Below, piece after piece: positions 10,691 to 49,243 of a stretch of DNA of 64,000 bases. Origin of the DNA: a virus (lineage: Duplodnaviria > Caudoviricetes); IMG/VR virus record IMGVR_UViG_3300037589_000163, positions 1-64,000 of that record; one strand, written 5' to 3'. Numbering within the stretch: the first letter of the stretch is position 1; each line of letters opens with the position of its first letter. Made by a program: the position numbers and the translations under genes. The notes under the pieces were generated by a model. That model was not told the origin of the DNA. It saw nothing but the letters and a program-made list of their open reading frames with translations, and searched no databases.

Positions 10691-11086
10691 TTTAGATTTG
10701 ATGCCGAAAACAGGTATGTCGTTGAGCATAGCTCTTCTGGCCATGTCGTCGGTTCCACGGCCACCAGGAAAAGCAAAAACGAAGTTGGGTTTCCCGATGT
10801 CAATCATATGTTGATTGCGGTGGAAGCCGGCCAGTACATCAAACTTGGTCCCATCAAACCTGGTTCTGACGACAGCACCTGGCCGATCGATGTCGTACCA
10901 AAGAGCTGGGAAAGCTTGTTCAGGGATACCACGACTATCGGCCCATTCTTTTGCGAGCAAATCAGCTCCGCGGGCACCGCCATGAATGATCGATGTGATC
11001 CCCAGTTTAACGACTGCGAGGTCCATGATTTCATGCAAGAGTTTGTGGTCTTTGAAATCGCGACCACCACAGACGAGAGCTCTCAT
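10688..11086 (-). CDS. SLOG-superfamily protein (DUF2493/YspA-like)
   Basis: LVCGGRDF, IIHGGARGAD, RNQHM, AFPGGRGT motifs. Confidence 0.85.
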   Translation of the reverse strand: MRALVCGGRDFKDHKLLHEIMDLAVVKLGITSIIHGGARGADLLAKEWADSRGIPEQAFPALWYDIDRPGAVVRTRFDGTKFDVLAGFHRNQHMIDIGKPNFVFAFPGGRGTDDMARRAMLNDIPVFGIKSK

Positions 11087-11114
11087 TTTGGTCCCCAGAC
11101 TATCGGTTGATATT

Positions 11115-11150
11115 AAAAAAAGGGGACATCTCCGTTCTGGAGACGTCCCC
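11115..11150 (-). terminator. Intrinsic terminator
   Basis: GGGGACGTCTCC-AGAAC-GGAGATGTCCCC-T7 on the minus strand. Confidence 0.8.
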
Positions 11151-11470
11151 TAATGCTGGCGTAACCTGGCAGCAGCAGGAATCCCCTTCTCGTTGGGATC
11201 AGTACGCAAGTTCAAGTCTTTGAAGACCCGCTTTCAGCGAATGATTTGACCGCAATGCTCGTAGGAAGTTTTAATGAGCAAGGCGTGTCGGCATTTTGTG
11301 GATGCGTGACATGAGATGTGGTCACTATATGTAAGCGTCGTTCATCTTATTAAAACAAGGTGTATCGCTAACGCATTGGGCTTGGCTCCAGTTTGGTTGA
11401 CGCGATTGAGCGGGAACATCCGACAAGGGGACCGAATCCTTGCCGGACACAGACTCTCTTTCGAGAGACG
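11115..11470 (-). ncRNA. Candidate structured non-coding RNA (~350 nt), family unknown
   Basis: No credible ORF; about ten helices; G-U wobbles favour the minus strand; bounded by two terminators. Confidence 0.4.
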
Positions 11471-11500
11471 AAAAGGGGAACCTGGTTTCCCAGGTTCCCC
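11471..11500 (-). terminator. Intrinsic terminator after the gp2-like gene
   Basis: GGGGAACCTGG-GAAA-CCAGGTTCCCC-TTTT. Confidence 0.8.
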
Positions 11501-11522
11501 ATGAGGTGTGGTGTGGTGCCGA

Positions 11523-11957
11523 TTACTCGGCGGCTTCAGGCACCTTCGGCAAAGCGAGCAGCTTGCTGAGGTCGGTGGAGAACTCGTTGGTCTCCGGATC
11601 GACGGCCAGCTCCTCGTTGACCCGGCGAATGCGGATCTTGAGGTTCAGCTCTTCTTCACGGCCGGGATCGAAGTTGGCGCCCATTTCCTGGAGTGCTTCC
11701 AGCAGCTGGTTCTGAGCGATCCGCTGCTTGACCCATTCTTCGTTCTGGCCGCGGACGTCGAGCTTGTCCATGGTGTCGACCGGAATGCCGAAAGGCAGCG
11801 AGATGAAGCGTGCGTTTTCGCCTTCACCGGCTTCGTAGCCGACGTTGATCCAGATCTTGGCCTTCGGCTTGTTGGTGGGATTGGCCAGGCCGGCGAAAGG
11901 GGTGCTCGAGTTGTTGCTGTTCGAGGTGGTGTTGTTTCCGAAATTGATAACGCCCAT
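11523..11957 (-). CDS. N4 gp2-like ssDNA-binding activator of RNAPII
   Basis: Start MGVINFG with AAAGGAG RBS; KPKAKIWINVGY, RFISLPFGIPVD and PGREEELNLKIRIRRVN resemble N4 gp2 homologues. Confidence 0.8.
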   Translation of the reverse strand: MGVINFGNNTTSNSNNSSTPFAGLANPTNKPKAKIWINVGYEAGEGENARFISLPFGIPVDTMDKLDVRGQNEEWVKQRIAQNQLLEALQEMGANFDPGREEELNLKIRIRRVNEELAVDPETNEFSTDLSKLLALPKVPEAAE

Positions 11958-13698: not shown

Positions 13699-13719
13699 TC
13701 CAGAAAGGGCGTAAGCCCT
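13699..13719 (-). promoter_or_regulatory. vRNAP-type hairpin promoter variant (4-nt loop)
   Basis: TCC-AGAA-AGGGC-GTAA-GCCCT upstream of gp1. Confidence 0.6.
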
Positions 13720-38602: not shown

Positions 38603-41600
38603 ATGGTTGATAAAGTCAATCCGGCACTCTCGGCAAAAGGTCCTCGAGTGGCAAGCCAGCCGGAAACGGTTTCTGAAGCGCAAAAACTCCTTCAAGACAT
38701 CGCCCAGATCAACCAGGCCACATCTGACCCGAATGCCATGGCGGCAATGAATATCTCCCGTGAACGGGGGAACTCCCTGACAGGCGACAACGCCGTCATC
38801 CAGGATTATTCGACCCTGACACCCGTACAGTTTCAGAACCGCTACGGTATGGATGCCTATGACCAGATGGTGGCCGCCGGTATCGGAGCAGCTCATGCCA
38901 GAGACCTGGCCGGTAGCAGCCGTGATCTCGGACAGATTGCCAGAGATTCGGCGCTTGATGTCGCCAACGGTGCGTTGGGCGGTATCGGGGGTCTCAATGA
39001 CTTTCTGATCCGTGGTACGGTCGCTGGCCCGATCGGGGACAGGCTTCTCCAGAAAAACGCGGAAAACGTCCAGGGTGGTCGGGAATTCATCGACTCTTTC
39101 AAGACGACGCCGACGAAGCGGCTCGACTATGTCGACAGCATTCGGACCGAGTTGGATCGGATCGATAATGAAAAGCTGACCAAACAGGATGCCAGCGACG
39201 ACCAAGGCATTGTCGACTCTTTCCGCACATACGGGAAGTCCATCCTTCGGGATGCAGGGGCCGGCGTGGAAAGGTATGCTGAAGATCCTTCCCGTCTTGG
39301 TTCCGATGTCGGGGAAGGTGTTGGTTCGCTGCTTCTTGGTGGTGCCGCTTCCAAAGCTCTTTCGGTCGGTGCTTCTGGAGTGGTCAGAGCCACAGCTCCC
39401 ACCTCGGCAACTTCCAGGTTCGGCGCAGAGGCCGTTGATGCCGCAATTCAGCGTGCTGCTTTCCCGTTGTCGATTGGCGCCATGGAAGGCGGTGGAGCAT
39501 CGACCCAGGCAATTCTGGAAGTCATGGAAATGCCGGAAGAGGCTCTTCTCGAACAGCCGGCTTATCAGGAAATGCTCAGCGAAGGTTTGTCGCCGGCAGA
39601 TGCACGTAGCCGGCTGGCTGCTCGCTCCGGTGCCATTGCTGCATCGATCGCCGCACCAGTCGCAGCTGCAACTTCGAAGCTCGTCTCTCGCTTTGAGCAG
39701 GCACCTTTCTCGGGTGGTTCCGGAAGTGTGGTCGGCAACAGTGCAAGAGAGTTTGTCGAAGAAGGTATCCAGTCCGGTGCAGGAGAGCTCGCCGGGAACA
39801 TCGGTTTGAAGTTCTCAGGAGCTGACCAGGACGCAAGTCTCGTTGAGGGAGTTGGTTCCGCATCGGTGCAGGGTGCAATTGCAGGAGCAGGCACGGCCGG
39901 AGCAATTCAAGGCCCGAGCGCTGTTCTGCGGAATGCTGCAAAAGCAGCAGGATCCACTTTCAAATTTGCCGGCGACACTGTCAAGAAGCGTGGCGAAAAG
40001 ATCCTTGCCAACATTTCCAAGGAGTCGGCCGTCTCCGAAGAGAGCCTGGCTCCGGCACTGGAAGCAGCAACGACCCAGGCTACGTCCGTGGGAGAGGGTC
40101 TTCGCAAGCTGGCCACAGAGAACAGCACAAACGACGCCTCGGTCGAAGATTACATCTCCCGGGTGGAACGGGCCGTGCAGACAGACGAACAGGATCTGTA
40201 CCTCATTCCTGACAGCATGGGCCCTGTTCTGACGCAGATCCAGCAGGAAACTGGCCGAGTACCCAACCGCTTCGAAACGCTGACCGTGGCAGCAGCCACA
40301 GCCAACAACGAAGCTCTGAGCCAGGAAGAAAGGGTTGCCGCGGCAACTTTCCTTCTCAAGCACATCGAGAACAACAAAAAGCTGTTCACCGAGGATTTCC
40401 CCGAATTCCTGGACAATGTTCCCCATGATCGCCCGGAGTTCCAGGCATTCGAGGGATACGCCGGGATCCTTTCGACAATCGAACAGGTACCTGCAATTCA
40501 GCAGGCCATCGGTTGGGCTCGACAGGAAATGCAAGCGCCGGAAAGCGATGTCTCGAAAGTCGATCTGAATTCGGATGATGGACGGAAGATTGTTGAGAGA
40601 ACAGTCGAACTTGCGACAGTTGCTCCCCAGGCCATCAACCTGAAGGCAGCAGAAGACATTCTCTTCCAGGCCGACGAGGGCACGCTGAACCTTTCCCCGG
40701 AGCGTCGTCGCATTCTCCGTGGCGCCACGTCCTTGATCAACGCTGCTCGAGCTTACGCTGCACAGGTCAGGGTGATGGAACCAGGTGTTCTGGAAGAACA
40801 GTCGGAAGACCTCCAGCAAGAGCTTGATGAAACCCGTGATCGTGACGAGATGATGGAATTCATCGGCAGGCAGATCGAAAAGGACGGTGGTCCGAAGGCT
40901 CACCAGACTTCGCTGAGAGATCATGTTGCAGGCATCTCCCTTGCAGCGAGCCAGGGAGACATGAAGACCGCACGTCGCAAAGCGCAACGGCTCGTGATGT
41001 TCGCCATGTCGCATGCCAACAAGGTCAGCGCCTTGAGCCAGTCTATCCGAAACGGTGACGGCAAGAACGTGCCTTACAAAGCGTTGGCGGCTTCAGACGA
41101 ATTCTACACCAACAAGAAAGGTGTCGGTGTTCGCATCGGCAATCCTGGTTCCGAACGCTTTGCGCGCAAGGTTCAGGCAGAAGCAATGGCAATCGCTCAG
41201 TTGGCGAATGACATCAGCAACCAGTATCCCGAATTTGGTCTGCGCCAGGTCGAAGTTTCGGACCTTGGCTTGCAGAATGTTGAAGTCGGACAGAGGGAGC
41301 CCGCTCCCGCCGAACAGACAGAACTTCCCCAGGCTACCACAGCCGAGCAGGTTCAGGTTCGTCAGGAGGAGCTCCCTCTTCCGCGTTCTCAGCCTGCCCA
41401 GGAGCCTTCGCAAGCAACATCGGAGGAGACGTCCGTTGATGCGAGCTCGACCGTGGCGGCTGAGAAAGTGGTTTCGGAAACAGTGGATGAAGCCACCGCC
41501 GGCCCAGAAGATACAGGGAGCGGGCCGGCAGCGGCTTCGACCTCGACAGAATTGCAGGGGGGGTACTACCCTGCCGAGGTAACCGATCAGAGTTCTGACC

Positions 41601-44600
41601 GGGTTTCGGAATTGCTTGATGGTGTGTCTGAGGACGTTGATTACCGTCCTACGACTGCTGAGGAATATCCGGATCTCGTGGCACCGAATGGGAACAACTG
41701 GTTCCACAAGTCGTTCCGTAGCCCGGAAAACCTGAAGTCTCGTGTGGTCTGGTTGACCAACCCGATCAAGGATTTCAAGAGGATCCTGAGCAAGTCGAGT
41801 GAACTGGTTTCCTTCATGGGGAACCCGGATCTTCGGTATGATGTGAATGGTCAGGATGCTGCGGGTTTCCGCAAGCTCCTCTCCCTGGCCGATCCTGCGT
41901 TGGAAGCGATCGAGAATCGTTTGAAGGCCCGTCTCAAGAAGGACGGGCTTCTCGAAAAGATCGGCCAGGGGTTGGAAGTCAACCGGTTCCGGGATCTCCG
42001 TGTTCTGAACCTGATGCGCCAAGATGGCACGGGTTACAACACTCAGCTCGTGGAGACGGCAGTCATTGCTGGTCTCGACTGGGCTATCAACATGAGTTCC
42101 CGGGCTGCCCGGATGACTGTCAGTGAAGTTGCTTCCATCATGGGAGTCGATGAGGCTGATGCGGCTCCCTATGTGGAGGAGTTCAACCGCGGCATGTCGA
42201 TGGACATTGCCAAGCGTTCCCTGGCCGATCGAATCGTCCAGTTCTGGGGCGTTGAACCCGAAAAAAGTGCTCGTGATGGCCTGACCAAGGGGATTCCCGA
42301 GGCCATGGCTGCTGAAGTGCTGCATGGCCTGGAGGCTGCCGGCCTGCTTGAACTCGGTATTGAAAAGAAGGATGGCGAAGACAAGCGTCTCGCTTTCCCA
42401 CACCTGACCGAGAAGAAATTCAACCGCGTGCTGTTCGATACCCGGACGGAAGAAATGGAAGGATTGATCCGCAGCCTGGATGGCAAGCATGACTTGCTTG
42501 CCGACATGGTTCTGGTGAACCGTGAAGTTGAAGATTTCAGCATCGGTGAACCGGTGACAGACATCGATCAGCGTCAGCTTCGCAACCCGATGGTCGCTCT
42601 TTCCAACCAGCAGAAAAAGACCCTGGAGCACGTCCAGAGCACGCCGTATTTCCCGAACCAGGTTGTCTATGATTTCTATCAGACGCTTGGTGAAGAAGCC
42701 TATGTGACGATGATGAGTGGTCACCCCTACCAGAAGGGTGACCTGGAAAAGACCCACGTCGAAATGGGTTTGAACAGGATCCATTGGGAGTCCATCAAGG
42801 GACGTCAGCGTGGTTTGGTCAGTGATTTCCGTAATGTAACCAAGCAGATGACGGCTGTTCGTAGGAAGGGAGAAAACGTCCCGACCTACTACAAGCACCA
42901 CATCAACAAGCTTGGTCGTACCCAGATGGCTGGCCTCAGCAATCCGCAGACTTCGAAGCTCGCTCGTGAGATCTTTATGCCGACACGCTCGGAGCTGGAC
43001 TTGTCTGAGAATGCTCCGGATATGGACAAATTCCTGATGACCGTCGGTCAGGGCATAGGCCTGAAAACCGAAAAAGAAACTCGAGCCGACATCGTGATCA
43101 AGGTCATGGAAAAGACCATGACGGAAGGTGGAGAATTCTACCAGACAGTCCAGAACCTCAAGTCCTGGCTCCAGCAGCGTGAGAATGACCAGGGACAGGA
43201 TATTGACCTGGGAGTGTTCGAGGATCTCCGTTCGCACGGTCTTTCGGATCATGGCCTGCACTCGCTCATAGCGGTTGCCCGCTACGAGCTCGCCTCCGAA
43301 ACCGGGGGCGATCTGAGCAAGTTCGAGGTGTTCAACTATCTCGAGGCTGACGGCAAGACCAATGGTCCGATCAACGCCCTGATGACGCTGGCCGCCGGCA
43401 AGATCACTCCTGCCTGGCTCAACGCTGTAGGCAAGGGTGGTGCTTTCTTTGGTCGGTTGAACAAGACACTCAACAGCCACGAAGACAAGGTTGACCTCTA
43501 CGAAGAGAGCTCGACCGAAACCCAGGTTCAGATTGTGGAACTCAACGCAGCACTGGCTGAAAGTGACGAGAGTTCACATGAACTGTTTATTCGGTTCAAA
43601 AGGTTCCTATCGGCTCTGGAAGCCAATGTCGAAATCGACAGCAACGGTGAGATCACCATCAAGCGTGGTCTGACCAAGAACCCGTTGACCATCACCATTT
43701 ATGGATCAGGCGCCAAGGGTATCGCCGGCAAGGTCACAGACGAGATTGTGAATGCAATCTACGAGAACCTTTCCAAGTCGATCCAGGATGGAAAGCATGC
43801 TGGTGAGTTGATCTACGGTGACGGCAAGGGATCTGACTTCATGTCGGATCTGGTTGAGTTGACCTCGAAAGTCGTTCTTCGCAGCAAGGACAGCGAAGAA
43901 TATTTCGTCATGGGTGAGACCAAGGAAATTGGCGGTTCCAGCCAGAATTTCACGTTCAACAGGGAACAGTACAGCAACCTTCGTCAGAACGTTTTGACGT
44001 TCCTGGTCAATCCGATGCGGTTGGCGATCGATAAGAAAGTCACTGGTCATGTTGGCCGGACGACTTCGGCTGTCCAGCAGGCAACCCAGATCCAGTCGAT
44101 CTTCCTAAAGGGAATGACGATCGATAAGGTGACCCGTCGTCTTGCTGAAATGAAGAACGACCCGGACAAGTTCTCCTACCGGGAAGGTGAGTTCCTGAAC
44201 CGTAACGAGCAGCAGGATATTCAAGATAATCTCAAGCGATTTTCTCCAATAATCGACACCGGCACTCAGGCCTACATGATGTCGGGTGGAGAACGGAGTG
44301 ACCTGTTTGAGAAGACCGTCGTGGATATCGACGGCAAGCCGGTTGAAGTGACAATGCCGGAAACGTTCTCGAGGTCCTTGTCCGGTGATATGAAGACGCC
44401 AGCCTATTTCTATGGGCCCACGCTCGCTGGTGTTCGTGCCATTCCGACCCTGGTCGTTGGATCCGGTGATGGACAGATGATGCTCAACTTCCTCTCCGGA
44501 AACCCGGAAGCGGCTCGTCGTGTGCTGCATGTGTTCGATGGTCTGAACATGCCGGCTGATGCGATCGACGATTATTCGCGTCTCGTCAACCAGGCTGTTT

Positions 44601-47600
44601 TCCAGACCTGGACTTCAGACAAGAACCCGGTCCGGGCCGCCTATGAAAGTTTCAAGGCGTTCGTCGAAGCTTCCCCGATTGAAGAGCTTTTCCCTGGCGA
44701 TCAAATGAATGATCAGCAGAAGCAGGCTCTCCTGGAGTTGAGTCAGGTGGCCCTGGATCGCTTTGAAGTGGCTGAAGGCGATATCATCGACACCGAAACG
44801 GTCAGTCAGCTTCTGAACCTGACACTCGATAGGCTCGAGAGACTGGCCAACGAGACGGATGCACGTCGCCAGGTTTACGCTGAATTCGATTTGTCGGTCG
44901 ACCAGATGGCTTCGGGTGAAAGCCCGTTCGTGAATGAAGGTTCGATCAAGCTGGAAGAAAACACCAGCATCGAAGACATCGCCTATGAAATGCAGGCGCG
45001 TTACGAAGAGATCCTGACCAACCAGACGAAGCCAAAGACCGAGAAAACCAGTGTCTCCGGTGTGGAATCTCCCAACCAGAAACTGGAGGAGTTCATCCAG
45101 TCCGTGGCAAACACGAACGAGAACGGTGCTCTTGTCCTGGATCCGGATCAGTTGTCGGCAATGCCTGACAAGATCCTGAATTCCTCGCAGAAGCAGGTTT
45201 TGTCTGCCGCGGTGAAATCCCTGGCCGGCGCCGGTTATAGATTGGTCTTTGGAACACCAAGCGTGCTCGATGCCTGGGAACAGGCCAACAACGCTGACCG
45301 GTTCCTTCCTGGTTCCAACAATGGTTACGGCAAGATCGATCCGATTTCGAAGGTAGTCCTGGTCTCGAATACCTCGGGTGAGACCTTGGTTCACGAGCTC
45401 GTTCATGCCGCGACTTTCATGAAGGTCAAGGCAGCGTTCGAAGATCCCAAGGCAATCCCCAAGGAAGACCTGGAAGCTGTGGCCCGTATTGAAGGCCTCA
45501 TGGCCGAGTGGTTGGCCCAGGATTTCAGTGAATTTGACGAAGCAGCACAGGATGCCCGCCGGCAGGCTGTGGCGACAGTCGAAGGATACCATCGCCGCGG
45601 ACAGACTGCTCAGGCGGTCAATGAGTTCATGGCCTGGGTTTTGGGTAACCAGAACCTCAGCCGTGCTGCTCTCTTGACGAAGGTCAAGAACCCGCTTGCG
45701 AAGATCGCTCGTAATGCCCTGGCAGCCTTGAAAAAGCTGGTCTTCGGTACCGACAAAGTTGATCCGGTGCATGATGATCTGATGTCAAACTTGCGCTTCA
45801 ACACCCAAGTTCTCATGGCTACACCGACGCCGATCGAATTGCTGCGCCAGGATTACAACGACATGGCGCTCTACCAGTCGGCAACATTTGGCAACGACCA
45901 GCGGATTTCCGAACTGAGAGATCTGTTTGGTCGCAAGATCATTGCCTGGGTCAAGGGTAGCGGAACAGACGTCATCAACCGTTTGCAGAGCTCCGGCCGG
46001 GCAGTCGAAGCGCTGGATGCCTACAAGGCAGGCTTCAACACAGCCAGGGCTTTCGGATACCACTTTGACGGTCTCGGAAATATGCAGGCCAATTCGACCT
46101 TTGCTTCCATTCAGGCAGCGCTGATGACCGAAATGGATTTGAATTCCAATTCGCTGTCCAGGATTGAAGAGCTCTACAATCACGTCATGGGACAGTTGTC
46201 GCCGAGTTCCTTCCAGGAAAAGCCGGATCAGAACGACCCGAACGATCTTTACCAGGCCCAGGGAAAGTTCAACGTGTTGTCTGGTATCTACATCAATGAG
46301 ACCGACAAACTCGGCCGGTCTTCCCTGATGTCGTCTTTCCTGGCCCTCGCCATGGTCGATGACGGTTTCCGCAAGATCCTTGCTGGGATGAACAAGCCTG
46401 AAAACGAACAGAGCCAGGACCGCACTCTTGACGGTCTGCTCGAGAACGCAGCAAATGCTGGTCTCGATCGTCTGTCCCTGTATCTGGCAGGAGAGAAGAA
46501 GCAGGACAAGTCAGTGCAAGAAGCACTCGACAGCCTGACCATTGCGATGATCGAAAATGTCGGTGATCAGCGTGCATTCGTTGAACAGCAGACAGAGACT
46601 TTCTTCGAACAGGTCGAGGAAAAAGTCGCCAATTCGATCCAGGAGACCAGTGCCAGGGTTGCAGAGAAGTCGGCCGATGTTGCGAGGAACTCGAACAGCC
46701 GAACCGTCAAGGCCGGCGCCACGATCGTCAATGTCTTTTCGACGATGATCAATGAGCAGAAGTCGAGTGACGCAATGCTTGGTATGGTCAGCTGGCTCAA
46801 CCAGAAAGAAGGTATGGAACTGATCCGGGACACTGTCGGCAACTTCATTGGCCGAACCCGGGAGAATGCCGGCGTCTTCGATATGATCTCGAAGGTCCGG
46901 GCCCAGGTTCAGCAGGTTCGTCAGAACTTCCGTGAGGATCTTCCGGTCAAGCTTTCGAAGGAGTTCTCCAGGCCGCCGACTGCAAAGCAGTGGACTGCGA
47001 TGTATAACGCCCTCGGACGATCGGATATTGCTTCCCTGGTTCGTTCCTATGGTGTCGGTAAAACTGTCGATCTCGTTGCGGATACGTCAAAGATCGATGC
47101 TGAAGTGCAGAAGCTGGAGAGACAGATCCAAGCAGACAATGCCAGCCGCTTCCCGAAGATCAAAGAGAAGTCCTTGCAGCTTGCCAAGTTCATGATGACC
47201 GGCGAGCACGGTCCTCAGCTGCTTCGTAATGCCGAAGCAATCGCTCGTCTCCTGGGAGAGCGTGGCCTTGCCTTGCGTACCGCGCCTTCGCAAGAGCTCG
47301 TTGAATCGATCGACAAGCTGGTGACGCTGTATGCTCTCCAGGGGCTCGATGACAACAGTCGGGCAGACGTGACAACCTTGCTTGGAAACACGAAGGACAG
47401 GTCCGGAGTTGAGTTTGTCACCAGTTATCTGGTTGGTCAGCGCAATGATGAGCTGGCCAAGGTAGGAAGCAACAAGACTGCATCTTTTAACCACTACAAA
47501 GGACACATCCCATCGGAAGTCCAGCAGGGTGGTTCATTGAGGATTGCTTCCGAAACAAGCCACGCAGAAATGGTAAGCAGGGGATATACCCGTGTGGCAT

Positions 47601-49243
47601 CGTATGATGGATCTTCGGCCGATCGGACCCGCGGCAAACGAGCCTACTACTTTGCTCCGGTGTCGAGCCAGGCACCCTTCAGCCAGGGTGTCATGCAGAC
47701 CGTTCACCAAACGGTGTCCGGTATTGATCCGGAAACAGGTTTCACGATCGGAGAAGTGATGGGTGGTCGCATCGAGAATATCGATGTGGTGAAAATCATT
47801 GCTCGTCAGGTTGGAAACCAGAAGACAACCAACGAAAATCTTCTCCCTGTTTTTGGAGATAATGGGGAGATCGTGGCTTTCGAAAGGGGTGCTGATGTTT
47901 CGAAGCTCCAGGGGCTGAACCGCAGCACGGATCTGTCGCAGATGATTGGTGTTTGGCGTGGTCGTCAGGCGGAAGAGCTTCTTGCAACGGAAGTGAACAA
48001 GCAGCTCGTCGACGCCCTGAAAGACACCTGGGAAGAAGGCCGCAAGGCCGGTCGGAAAGATGAGTTCGTGAACATCGCTGCTCTTGGTTCAAAGAAGAGC
48101 GATGACCGCATCCTTTCGGAAGCAGCTCGTCTCATTCCGAACCAGACCAGGGATTACATCAAGGAAGTCTTCGGTGGCGATCAGTTCATGGTTCGCAGGG
48201 ACATGCTGCTTGACACATTCGGAGCCCGCCAGGCTTCGGTGGGTGATCTGTTTACCGGTAAGACCCGGTGGAACCAGAAGGTCGTCAATGAGTTCGAGAA
48301 GGTCGCTGTAGGCATTTTCGGAAAGCATGCCTATGTCGGAGCTGTCTCGGCCGAGAAGAACATCCAGGAGCTTGTCTCGAACGCCAAGACCATGATTGTG
48401 GTCAAGTCCGGTATCGTGCCGGCAGCGAACATGATCTCGAACCTGTTTCAGTTGCTCAACCGCGGTGTTCCGCTTCGCCATATCCTGGCCGGCGTTCCTG
48501 CAAAGACGGTGGAGATCAACTCCTATATCAAGAACAGGCACAGGGAGATCGGTATCGAAGCCGATCTACGTGCAGCAATGGGTCGTCGTGACCTGGTTCA
48601 GATAAGGCGCCTGGAGAACCAGTTGAAAGGAATCCAGGACGGTTATCGTCGGATGAGCATCTGGCCGTTGATTGAAGCGGGTGAGTTTTCCGCAATTTCA
48701 AATGGACAGGTGACTGCCGAAGATCTGGCCGTGGCCGATGGCAAGTGGACTGATTGGATCGAGAACAAGATCAACACACTGCCTGGCGGTTTCCGTACAG
48801 CTGCACGATATGGGTTAATCACCCGGGACACTGCCTTGTTCCAGGGTCTGGCCAAAGCGGTTCAGTACGGAGATTTCGTGGCAAAGGCAGTGCTCTACGA
48901 CGACATGACGCGCCGCAAAAAAGCCAAGAAAGAAGACGCTATCGCCACGGTGAACGAGGCTTTCGTCAACTACAACAAGTTGGCCGGCCGGGATCGTCAA
49001 TACCTGGAAAGCGTTGGGCTCCTGTGGTTCTGGAACTACAAGATCCGGATCATGAAGGAAGCAGTTCACATGCTCCGACACAATCCTCTGAGGTCCCTGT
49101 TGATGACAGGGGTACCGGTGGGAACTCCCGTAGGAGACAACATCGTCTCTGTCATCCTGGAAGATCGACTTGGATGGTCGATAGGACCTGGAATGGGGTG
49201 GAACAGTGTGAGCCTCAACCCCTGGATCAACCTTACACGTTGA
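38603..49243 (+). CDS. Virion-encapsidated RNA polymerase (N4 gp50-like vRNAP)
   Basis: 3546 aa, no Cys seen; motif A EADGKTNGP, motif B RGLTKNPLTITIYGSG, motif C VFDG. Confidence 0.96.
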   Translation: MVDKVNPALSAKGPRVASQPETVSEAQKLLQDIAQINQATSDPNAMAAMNISRERGNSLTGDNAVIQDYSTLTPVQFQNRYGMDAYDQMVAAGIGAAHARDLAGSSRDLGQIARDSALDVANGALGGIGGLNDFLIRGTVAGPIGDRLLQKNAENVQGGREFIDSFKTTPTKRLDYVDSIRTELDRIDNEKLTKQDASDDQGIVDSFRTYGKSILRDAGAGVERYAEDPSRLGSDVGEGVGSLLLGGAASKALSVGASGVVRATAPTSATSRFGAEAVDAAIQRAAFPLSIGAMEGGGASTQAILEVMEMPEEALLEQPAYQEMLSEGLSPADARSRLAARSGAIAASIAAPVAAATSKLVSRFEQAPFSGGSGSVVGNSAREFVEEGIQSGAGELAGNIGLKFSGADQDASLVEGVGSASVQGAIAGAGTAGAIQGPSAVLRNAAKAAGSTFKFAGDTVKKRGEKILANISKESAVSEESLAPALEAATTQATSVGEGLRKLATENSTNDASVEDYISRVERAVQTDEQDLYLIPDSMGPVLTQIQQETGRVPNRFETLTVAAATANNEALSQEERVAAATFLLKHIENNKKLFTEDFPEFLDNVPHDRPEFQAFEGYAGILSTIEQVPAIQQAIGWARQEMQAPESDVSKVDLNSDDGRKIVERTVELATVAPQAINLKAAEDILFQADEGTLNLSPERRRILRGATSLINAARAYAAQVRVMEPGVLEEQSEDLQQELDETRDRDEMMEFIGRQIEKDGGPKAHQTSLRDHVAGISLAASQGDMKTARRKAQRLVMFAMSHANKVSALSQSIRNGDGKNVPYKALAASDEFYTNKKGVGVRIGNPGSERFARKVQAEAMAIAQLANDISNQYPEFGLRQVEVSDLGLQNVEVGQREPAPAEQTELPQATTAEQVQVRQEELPLPRSQPAQEPSQATSEETSVDASSTVAAEKVVSETVDEATAGPEDTGSGPAAASTSTELQGGYYPAEVTDQSSDRVSELLDGVSEDVDYRPTTAEEYPDLVAPNGNNWFHKSFRSPENLKSRVVWLTNPIKDFKRILSKSSELVSFMGNPDLRYDVNGQDAAGFRKLLSLADPALEAIENRLKARLKKDGLLEKIGQGLEVNRFRDLRVLNLMRQDGTGYNTQLVETAVIAGLDWAINMSSRAARMTVSEVASIMGVDEADAAPYVEEFNRGMSMDIAKRSLADRIVQFWGVEPEKSARDGLTKGIPEAMAAEVLHGLEAAGLLELGIEKKDGEDKRLAFPHLTEKKFNRVLFDTRTEEMEGLIRSLDGKHDLLADMVLVNREVEDFSIGEPVTDIDQRQLRNPMVALSNQQKKTLEHVQSTPYFPNQVVYDFYQTLGEEAYVTMMSGHPYQKGDLEKTHVEMGLNRIHWESIKGRQRGLVSDFRNVTKQMTAVRRKGENVPTYYKHHINKLGRTQMAGLSNPQTSKLAREIFMPTRSELDLSENAPDMDKFLMTVGQGIGLKTEKETRADIVIKVMEKTMTEGGEFYQTVQNLKSWLQQRENDQGQDIDLGVFEDLRSHGLSDHGLHSLIAVARYELASETGGDLSKFEVFNYLEADGKTNGPINALMTLAAGKITPAWLNAVGKGGAFFGRLNKTLNSHEDKVDLYEESSTETQVQIVELNAALAESDESSHELFIRFKRFLSALEANVEIDSNGEITIKRGLTKNPLTITIYGSGAKGIAGKVTDEIVNAIYENLSKSIQDGKHAGELIYGDGKGSDFMSDLVELTSKVVLRSKDSEEYFVMGETKEIGGSSQNFTFNREQYSNLRQNVLTFLVNPMRLAIDKKVTGHVGRTTSAVQQATQIQSIFLKGMTIDKVTRRLAEMKNDPDKFSYREGEFLNRNEQQDIQDNLKRFSPIIDTGTQAYMMSGGERSDLFEKTVVDIDGKPVEVTMPETFSRSLSGDMKTPAYFYGPTLAGVRAIPTLVVGSGDGQMMLNFLSGNPEAARRVLHVFDGLNMPADAIDDYSRLVNQAVFQTWTSDKNPVRAAYESFKAFVEASPIEELFPGDQMNDQQKQALLELSQVALDRFEVAEGDIIDTETVSQLLNLTLDRLERLANETDARRQVYAEFDLSVDQMASGESPFVNEGSIKLEENTSIEDIAYEMQARYEEILTNQTKPKTEKTSVSGVESPNQKLEEFIQSVANTNENGALVLDPDQLSAMPDKILNSSQKQVLSAAVKSLAGAGYRLVFGTPSVLDAWEQANNADRFLPGSNNGYGKIDPISKVVLVSNTSGETLVHELVHAATFMKVKAAFEDPKAIPKEDLEAVARIEGLMAEWLAQDFSEFDEAAQDARRQAVATVEGYHRRGQTAQAVNEFMAWVLGNQNLSRAALLTKVKNPLAKIARNALAALKKLVFGTDKVDPVHDDLMSNLRFNTQVLMATPTPIELLRQDYNDMALYQSATFGNDQRISELRDLFGRKIIAWVKGSGTDVINRLQSSGRAVEALDAYKAGFNTARAFGYHFDGLGNMQANSTFASIQAALMTEMDLNSNSLSRIEELYNHVMGQLSPSSFQEKPDQNDPNDLYQAQGKFNVLSGIYINETDKLGRSSLMSSFLALAMVDDGFRKILAGMNKPENEQSQDRTLDGLLENAANAGLDRLSLYLAGEKKQDKSVQEALDSLTIAMIENVGDQRAFVEQQTETFFEQVEEKVANSIQETSARVAEKSADVARNSNSRTVKAGATIVNVFSTMINEQKSSDAMLGMVSWLNQKEGMELIRDTVGNFIGRTRENAGVFDMISKVRAQVQQVRQNFREDLPVKLSKEFSRPPTAKQWTAMYNALGRSDIASLVRSYGVGKTVDLVADTSKIDAEVQKLERQIQADNASRFPKIKEKSLQLAKFMMTGEHGPQLLRNAEAIARLLGERGLALRTAPSQELVESIDKLVTLYALQGLDDNSRADVTTLLGNTKDRSGVEFVTSYLVGQRNDELAKVGSNKTASFNHYKGHIPSEVQQGGSLRIASETSHAEMVSRGYTRVASYDGSSADRTRGKRAYYFAPVSSQAPFSQGVMQTVHQTVSGIDPETGFTIGEVMGGRIENIDVVKIIARQVGNQKTTNENLLPVFGDNGEIVAFERGADVSKLQGLNRSTDLSQMIGVWRGRQAEELLATEVNKQLVDALKDTWEEGRKAGRKDEFVNIAALGSKKSDDRILSEAARLIPNQTRDYIKEVFGGDQFMVRRDMLLDTFGARQASVGDLFTGKTRWNQKVVNEFEKVAVGIFGKHAYVGAVSAEKNIQELVSNAKTMIVVKSGIVPAANMISNLFQLLNRGVPLRHILAGVPAKTVEINSYIKNRHREIGIEADLRAAMGRRDLVQIRRLENQLKGIQDGYRRMSIWPLIEAGEFSAISNGQVTAEDLAVADGKWTDWIENKINTLPGGFRTAARYGLITRDTALFQGLAKAVQYGDFVAKAVLYDDMTRRKKAKKEDAIATVNEAFVNYNKLAGRDRQYLESVGLLWFWNYKIRIMKEAVHMLRHNPLRSLLMTGVPVGTPVGDNIVSVILEDRLGWSIGPGMGWNSVSLNPWINLTR

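Follow-up and report, generated by a model that had tools for sequence, protein, structure and literature searches.

In leader-peptide attenuators (trp/his; erm, vmlR), a Shine-Dalgarno (SD) sequence and a short upstream ORF (uORF) are combined with alternative RNA structures and with a terminator that lies tens of nucleotides before the gene. In S. meliloti leaders, ribosome-occupied upstream RBSs or uORFs regulate the downstream genes by coupling or occlusion, acting 3-25 nt from the main RBS (PMC13285730). The bar minigenes of lambda and synthetic minigenes consist of an SD, an AUG, one to few codons, and a stop; the shorter they are, the more peptidyl-tRNA drop-off and tRNA sequestration they cause, an effect seen only with defective peptidyl-tRNA hydrolase (Pth) (PMC2490762). 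tmRNA is a structured RNA that contains a very short stop-ended frame. GOLLD, ROOL, and HEARO, together with riboswitch-like junctions, are prophage-borne, several hundred nucleotides long, and have conserved loops or junctions; some large orphan phage RNAs sit beside tRNA genes. For an N4-like phage, the sRNAs reported are late-region species of LUZ7, the only ones among the papers we retrieved (PMC9163698).

Here, we report that positions 11115-11470 (minus strand) of a 64-kb window (the whole stretch of DNA that we analysed, most of a 74-kb IMG/VR virus record) are, as judged by sequence comparison, one member of an undescribed, rare family of ~330-430-nt phage RNA elements. The element resembles leader-peptide attenuators in its SD and short uORF, its proposed alternative RNA structure, and, in six of ten lineages, a terminator tens of nucleotides before a gene; it differs in that its ORF is 2-5 codons long with no conserved regulatory codon, that this ORF and the terminator are separated by ~200-300 nt of conserved RNA with many helices, among them an invariant twin hairpin, that inspection found neither an antiterminator nor an anti-SD, i.e., no conserved alternative pairing with the terminator 5' strand or the SD, and that the downstream genes are mutually unrelated. 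With the S. meliloti upstream RBSs it shares the order Rhizobiales, the probable host order of the element, whereas its mini-ORF lies 250-350 nt upstream with a terminator in between (PMC13285730). It is like the minigenes in being a phage-borne SD, AUG, one to few codons, and stop, and unlike them in that its reading frame, whose codons vary, lies inside a covarying fold; a host defective in Pth was required for the minigene effect (PMC2490762). As in tmRNA, a very short stop-ended frame lies within a structured RNA, but the element has no tRNA-like domain, and its frame comes with a separate SD and start codon. Compared with GOLLD, ROOL, and HEARO, which it resembles in being carried by prophages, in its length of several hundred nucleotides, in its conserved loops and junction, and, in one carrier (L056), in its place beside tRNA genes, the element is smaller and thermodynamically unremarkable, carries a translatable mini-ORF, and has no Rfam match. 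To our knowledge, comparative support exists for few phage RNA elements of similar length, bar minigenes have not been described with an associated conserved RNA fold, and no other element is known in which a conserved 2-5-codon frame is built into a covarying fold.

The window carries a vRNAP-size ORF (3,546 aa, 38603-49243), and the ORF ending at 11523 is a homologue of N4 gp2 (tBLASTN, 44% to N4 gp2 and 50% to Sinorhizobium phage ort11), relatives of which carry Pfam Phage_N4_Gp2. The portal protein is nearest (~64%) to the portals of Agrobacterium, Sinorhizobium, and Rhizobium N4-like phages, so the host of the window phage is probably in the Rhizobiales; its closest cultured relatives have Rhizobiales hosts. 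Behind gp2 comes a gap (11522-11087), followed on the minus strand by a SLOG/YspA gene (11086-10688, ATG at 11086), and a NADAR protein gene is located at 9813-9373, 1.3 kb downstream of the element. Elsewhere in the window, a tRNA-Ser gene (1239-1328, minus) adjoins a 352-aa ORF (1416-2474, minus); if this ORF is an integrase, the phage would be temperate, an unusual lifestyle among N4-like phages.

The first-pass annotation had described the gap as a candidate highly structured ncRNA without a credible ORF, bracketed by two minus-strand terminators. Both the bracketing and the coding-free nature of the gap held: a terminator scan placed terminator-type hairpins, both with a U-run behind them, at 11500-11475 and 11151-11121, and no ORF exceeds 62 aa. 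No protein frame is conserved either, the six-frame comparison giving short matches on the nucleotide-conserved core, in several frames and on both strands, and a 1-nt indel in the loop of hairpin PA (listed below) breaks any reading frame; on these two grounds a small protein gene was rejected. Its statement that no Rfam family is recognizable also agrees with our scans. At gathering threshold, Rfam 15 returned only tRNA for the whole window and only tRNAs for nine homologous loci, and relaxing the cut-off over 10900-11700 produced only sub-threshold hits, all on the terminators, the best being BjrC68 with 23 bits against a threshold of 39. No tmRNA was found by ARAGORN in the window or as a match to an Rfam tmRNA family, and the literature searched describes no matching RNA element. 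By these comparisons the family is new, i.e., undescribed in Rfam 15 and in the literature searched.

The window element and the hairpin before it have the following parts, in 5' to 3' order on the minus strand:
11475..11500, minus strand: T1, the hairpin behind gp2, GGGGAACCUGG-GAAA-CCAGGUUCCCC and then UUUU (terminator scan).
11454..11467, minus strand: small hairpin CUCUC-GAAA-GAGAG, identical in the close relative L004 and absent from the other lineages.
11419..11447, minus strand: P1, a stable 10-bp 5' hairpin.
11386..11399, minus strand: CA-rich unpaired linker CAACCAAAC, then the SD UGGAG.
11368..11376, minus strand: mini-ORF AUG CGU UAG (Met-Arg-stop).
11349..11356, minus strand: GUUUUAAU, the 5' strand of a candidate pseudoknot with 11268-11275 in the P3a loop.
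11306..11330, minus strand: 'AUAUAG' motif and P2 hairpin GUGAC-CACAUCUCAU-GUCAC.
11291..11305, minus strand: P2b hairpin GCAU-CCACAAA-AUGC.
11248..11289, minus strand: P3 (GACaCGC/GCGGUC), enclosing the P3a hairpin UGCUC...GAGCA.
11178..11247, minus strand: core, with linker AAAUCAUU, then hairpins PA (CGC-UGAAA-GCG) and PB (GGUC-UUCAAA-GACU), single-stranded GAACUUGCG, and hairpin PC (GAUCCC-AACGAGAAG-GGGAUU).
11156..11210, minus strand: junction helix J (CUuGCGUA/UACGCcAG), closing PC and PD (MFE of the 3' segment).
11165-11179, minus strand: PD hairpin CCUG-CUGCUGC-CAGG.
11115..11151, minus strand: T2, a 13-bp intrinsic terminator (hairpin 11151-11121) with a U7 tract (terminator scan).

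The ATG of the SLOG gene (11086) is 28 nt past T2. T1 is probably the 5' boundary of the element and may be leaky; a T1-like hairpin after gp2 is also present in L009, L031, L059, and L017, in the first three without a direct U-run. PB can be likened to the 16S h42 loop and T1 to a 16S h45 sequence, both of which we take to be coincidence. In five of the N4-like lineages (window, L031, L009, L059, and L017), the hairpin behind the gp2 stop codon begins with GGGGA(A/G/C)C.... A (U/C)CGAUAG motif stands a few nucleotides past the element terminator in the window (11098-11106, minus), L057, L017, L009, and L031, with CGAUGG in L059; this motif could be a middle-promoter or initiation signal of the N4-like carriers.

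Among the homologues, which are given here by locus number, L004 is a 93%-identical Logan contig that was found through its gp2. BLASTN returned a 37-nt island common to the window, L009, and L010 (gp2 51% identical), and later L031, and the covariance model R1 (74 positions, 13 pairs) was built from the island sequences of the window, L004, L009, L010, and L031. A degenerate pattern from the island led to seven further IMG/VR loci, six of which R1 scores at 34-61 bits; overall, R1 gives 91 bits to the window core, 34-78 bits in eight other lineages, and 34-93 bits over nine further members. L058 (25 bits) matches the hairpin B/AACUUG part of the core only, and the membership of L017 (13.8 bits) was confirmed by long upstream motifs common to L062 and L057. 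The final set has 11 sequences from 10 lineages, the window and L004 counting as one lineage. No match came from BLASTN searches of 50,697 phage records with the window locus and the L062 version, nor from the exact pattern (…GGGTCTTCAA…) in IMG/VR, GTDB genomes, and JGI metagenomes, and a gp2-anchored scan of GTDB genomes returned nothing. The pattern AAATCTCTCAATTGGC recovered the known members L057 and L062 only, the other 20 loci being without core and flanking motifs; a loop-free core pattern added two hits, both apparently inside coding sequence, and model R2 found no further member among 61 loci.

Six lineages are N4-like and have the element after gp2, L017 with one extra ORF between. 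The other four carrier records gave no gp2 match (two ~80-kb proviruses, a 114-kb phage with terminal repeats, and a 41-kb, about half-complete fragment), and the element is absent from OLIVR1 and ort11, the closest cultured N4-like relatives tested; for these two reasons the element, judged by its carriers, is not confined to N4-like phages. Its strand is the coding one, its neighbours are early or accessory genes, and the five carrier records that were searched in full have a single copy each; no partner protein or shared neighbouring gene co-occurs with it among the carriers. From this distribution, the element acts like a mobile module passed among unrelated temperate phages, whose hosts are probably Rhizobiales, and such modular mobility argues for a self-contained function. 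In another N4-like phage (L002:2500-2630), the slot behind gp2 is filled by an ORF of ~38 codons between two terminator-like hairpins and not by the RNA element.

The part order, called on all ten lineages, is 5' hairpin P1, C/A-rich linker, SD, mini-ORF, 'AUAG' with P2, P2b, P3 enclosing P3a, a 7-11-nt linker, the nearly invariant core UCGCUGAAnGCGGGUCUnCAAnGACCunAACUUGCG (twin hairpins PA and PB), AACUUG, PC, PD, and an intrinsic terminator, and the 5' and 3' parts of the element are found together, in the same order, in 10/10 lineages. All the helices proposed in the first-pass annotation can be drawn where it had placed them, but their comparative support is uneven. P2, P3, and J were judged by custom scripts and by eye. 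The strongest case is P2 (GUGAC/GUCAC in the window), a 5-bp helix at the same place in 11/11 sequences, with a perfect Watson-Crick complement downstream of the anchored strand and five covarying versions (GCGCC/GGCGC, GUGAC/GUCAC, GUGCC/GGCAC, GCGGC/GCCGC, and UGACG/CGUCA); the product of the chance values over the 11 sequences is 7e-6. P2b and P3a are each supported by a double compensatory change in L004 (ACAU/AUGU and UGCUG/CAGCA, respectively), a hairpin stands at the P2b position in eight of nine other sequences, and the segment folded alone gives, in nearly all sequences, the P2b hairpin and then a helix enclosing a further hairpin, ending 7-11 nt before PA. In the core, 91.7% of cells are paired, compared with 15-45% in slid controls, the observed covariation score was reached by none of 500 shuffles, and five pairs are changed on both sides; PB (GUCU/AGAC) and PC (GAUCCC/GGGAUU) covary in the family, whereas PA (CGCU/AGCG) is conserved without covariation.

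For the remaining helices, position is kept rather than sequence, or the evidence is local. In most other lineages the place of P1, a little upstream of the SD, is taken by a hairpin of 7-12 bp, and hairpins also occupy the position of PD (CCUG/CAGG), but in both cases the sequences are unrelated. A hairpin and U-run close nine of the ten other sequences, L060 being doubtful. Support for J is moderate to weak: possible equivalents were read by eye in L031 (CUAGU/ACUAG), L009 (CUUGCG/CGUAAG or CUUG/CAAG), and L055 and L062 (CUUG/CAAG), and none was clear in L057, L059, and L056. For the candidate pseudoknot GUUUUAAU/AUUAAAAC it is weak because the pairing is confined to the window/L004 lineage, where L004 has GUUUUGAU/AUUGAAAC, i.e., two A-to-G changes opposite U that keep the pairing through G-U on the minus strand only. 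The hairpin CUCUC-GAAA-GAGAG carries no comparative information. The long-range helix CAAUGC/GCAUUG of the first-pass annotation was given up: it competes with the supported P3/P3a, it would cover the start codon of the mini-ORF, and no homologue supports it.

The pair of close relatives is informative in itself. The window and L004 differ by 26 substitutions, of which 11 fall in proposed helices and none disrupts pairing; four pairs carry double compensatory changes (P2b, P3a, and twice in T2), and in PB a G-U pair becomes G-C. Twenty of the 26 lie in a 92-nt stretch (11260-11351) with 22% divergence, compared with 0-2% in the flanks, a clustering that points to recombination with a diverged copy or to diversifying selection acting on the module. 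The SD, AUG, and stop, as well as the G-U pairs, are on one strand only. Conservation and covariation thus bear out that the minus strand carries a conserved, structured RNA element that does not code for protein. It is not, however, highly structured in the thermodynamic sense of the earlier claim. The MFE z-score is -3.6 for the gap including the 13-bp terminator T2, -1.7 for the gap without terminators, and -0.8 for the SD-to-PC core, and the mean over ten lineages is -0.6 for the RNA strand and -0.7 for the reverse complement; once the terminators are removed, the folding energy is no better than that of dinucleotide shuffles and the two strands score alike. Thermodynamic stability was dropped as evidence because these z-scores are not significant, and the evidence for the element is comparative, not thermodynamic.

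The mini-ORF is absent from the first-pass annotation and sits exactly where CAAUGC/GCAUUG had been drawn. An SD, an AUG or GUG, zero to three further sense codons, and a stop are found in 10/10 lineages and in 0/10 reverse complements. In every lineage the SD motif (AGGAGG, GGAG, or GGGA) lies at most 10 nt upstream of the start codon, usually with a C/A-rich stretch before it. The frames encode MR (window and L004), MKL (L009 and L055), MCM (L017), MK (L057), MKK (L062), MRI (L059), MLRR (L056), and MRKL (L060), and L031 has a bare start-stop, so that the same design is kept by nine different codon strings across 10 lineages; the second codon is Lys or Arg in about eight of ten, and codon identity is not conserved. 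When an SD, a start, at most four sense codons, and a stop within 130 nt were scored against dinucleotide shuffles of the same 130 nt, the pattern arose by chance in 2-16% of shuffles per sequence; the product of the chance values, ~6e-13, overstates the significance because the criterion was framed after seeing the data. The predicted accessibility of the SD/AUG (partition-function folding) is average. P2 starts 12-22 nt after the start codon in four lineages, and a ribosome footprint would reach P2 in those alone. Two more specific uses of the frame were rejected. A Lys/Arg tRNA sensor with matching tRNA genes downstream does not agree with the L056 tRNAs, which ARAGORN types as Cys and Met, and the idea that the UAG conserved within 'AUAG' serves in frame fails because the frame is inconsistent between sequences.

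Promoters of the N4 vRNAP have a short G+C-rich stem and a 3-nt loop that is purine-centred on the template strand. The hairpins CGGGC-UUC-GCCCG (12027-12015, minus), just upstream of gp2, and AGGGC-UUAC-GCCCU (13706-13719, minus), just upstream of gp1, share the form (C/A)GGGC-UU(A)C-GCCC(G/U), which we take to fit N4-type vRNAP promoters; both are candidates. A vRNAP promoter right before the element was rejected, as CUCUC-GAAA-GAGAG has a different stem and the opposite loop polarity compared with the gp1/gp2 hairpins, and no promoter of the element's own was identified. Of the earlier proposal that the RNA is transcribed very early behind a vRNAP-driven gene, what stands is that early co-transcription with gp2 is plausible because gp2 carries an N4-type hairpin promoter; co-transcription is also the simplest arrangement since the post-gp2 hairpin is without a direct U-tract in L009, L031, and L059.

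On the downstream side, only 17-45 nt lie between the end of the terminator and the next start codon in six lineages (window, L055, L062, L060, L057, and L017), too little for a sigma-70 promoter; in the N4-like L009, L031, and L059, the next gene is set off from the terminator by a long, AT-rich spacer of 170-190 nt, probably with promoters. No relationship exists among the genes that come next (SLOG, NADAR, kinase-like, DUF6197, and tRNAs). A NADAR gene comes directly after the element in L057:1859-2275 (minus) and L017:3939-4364, a weak SLOG-like protein is encoded downstream of it in L059, and in the 114-kb phage (L056:7036-7577, minus) the element is followed by a tRNA cluster, of which ARAGORN types Cys and Met and Rfam finds a third.

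How the element might act, in cis or in trans, is something we infer from sequence features. Please note that the evidence base is 10 lineages only, that the mini-ORF criterion is post hoc, and that covariation was counted with our own pair counts and shuffles. The reading that we place first, with belief and doubt about evenly balanced, is that the element is a translation-sensing, ribosome-coupled leader or switch rather than a free sRNA. In the window phage, a transcript would start at the vRNAP hairpin promoter of gp2 and run on through the weak hairpin T1 into the element; a ribosome would load on the exposed SD/AUG and terminate after one or few codons; its presence or absence would decide which neighbouring helices form, i.e., P2 or a lineage-specific pseudoknot; the invariant 3' junction would bind a partner; and ribosome state and partner binding together would set the choice between stopping at the terminator and reading through into an accessory gene, SLOG in the window and NADAR, a kinase-like gene, or DUF6197 elsewhere. 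A terminator 17-45 nt ahead of a gene is the layout of an attenuator or riboswitch, and its occurrence in six lineages makes a cis-acting leader at least as likely as a stand-alone ncRNA. Several findings tell against the leader reading: a folding energy no better than that of dinucleotide shuffles, a predicted SD/AUG accessibility that is only average, no conserved antiterminator or anti-SD pairing on inspection, and weak support for J and the pseudoknot. As for a riboswitch, a conserved junction is present; the downstream genes are heterogeneous.

The ncRNA of the first-pass annotation thus stands as an RNA element, and a stand-alone form of it is the main rival to the leader. We regard as possible, though rather unlikely, that the whole stretch between hairpin and terminator is set free as one separate, trans-acting RNA, in which the mini-ORF would dock ribosomes or protect from Rho/RNases and the junction would bind a host or phage factor in early host takeover or counter-defence. 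The element has a hairpin on either side and invariably closes with a terminator, the module shifts between unrelated phages whose carriers have no common neighbour gene, and in L056 it adjoins tRNA genes; a free-standing RNA also fits better with the unrelated downstream genes and with the long AT-rich spacer after the terminator in the three N4-like lineages L009, L031, and L059. What tells against release as a free RNA is the next gene only 17-45 nt past the terminator in six lineages, the lack of an identified promoter of its own, the post-T1 hairpin being unlike the vRNAP promoter hairpins, and the lack of a co-occurring partner protein.

A narrower version of the leader reading, in which the element is a new class of ribosome-coupled sensor RNA of temperate phages, is doubtful. 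Here the invariant twin-hairpin junction would bind a small molecule or host factor that signals how infection or defence stands, and ribosome loading on the mini-ORF would lead to read-through into counter-defence genes; a NAD+/ADP-ribose-derived signal is one idea because NADAR, SLOG, and macro-like genes are nearby.

It seems improbable to us that the mini-ORF is itself the effector, i.e., a minigene whose repeated translation of 2-5 codons releases peptidyl-tRNA and ties up ribosomes or particular tRNAs while the role of the RNA structure is limited to keeping the transcript stable and the start presented. The strong SD, its good spacing, and the very short frame in all lineages would suit this reading, as would the Lys or Arg second codon in about eight of ten; yet codon identity varies down to the bare start-stop of L031, and the most conserved part, the twin-hairpin core ~200 nt downstream, is left unexplained. 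The published drop-off and sequestration by shorter minigenes agree with it, and the need for defective peptidyl-tRNA hydrolase does not (PMC2490762). Equally hard to sustain is the view that only the 3' third is an RNA gene, with a promoter in the A/U-rich linker (TGcCATAAT in L062) driving a ~125-nt sRNA of PA, PB, PC, PD, and terminator, and with a separate leader or a remnant upstream. A -10-like hexamer does stand 7-11 nt before PA in several lineages (CATAAT in L062 and L017, GATAAT in L059, AAAAAT in L031), but it is poor in the window (CAAATC), L009, L055, L056, and L060, no consistent -35 element accompanies it, and the 5' and 3' parts travel together in all lineages. Finally, a mosaic spacer or mobile DNA remnant, conserved at the DNA level and with no functional RNA, would accommodate the non-significant MFE z-scores, the patchy distribution, and the sharp 92-nt divergence between near-identical phages, which suggests recombination, but is very improbable given the compensatory changes in several helices, the G-U pairs and SD/AUG/stop on one strand only, and a part order conserved across phages with unrelated flanks.

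We return to the ribosome-coupled leader as the preferred reading. The family is small and well delimited, and its members adjoin genes suspected of counter-defence (SLOG and NADAR). If a ribosome loads on the mini-ORF, the element would couple RNA folding to the state of translation during the opening minutes of infection.
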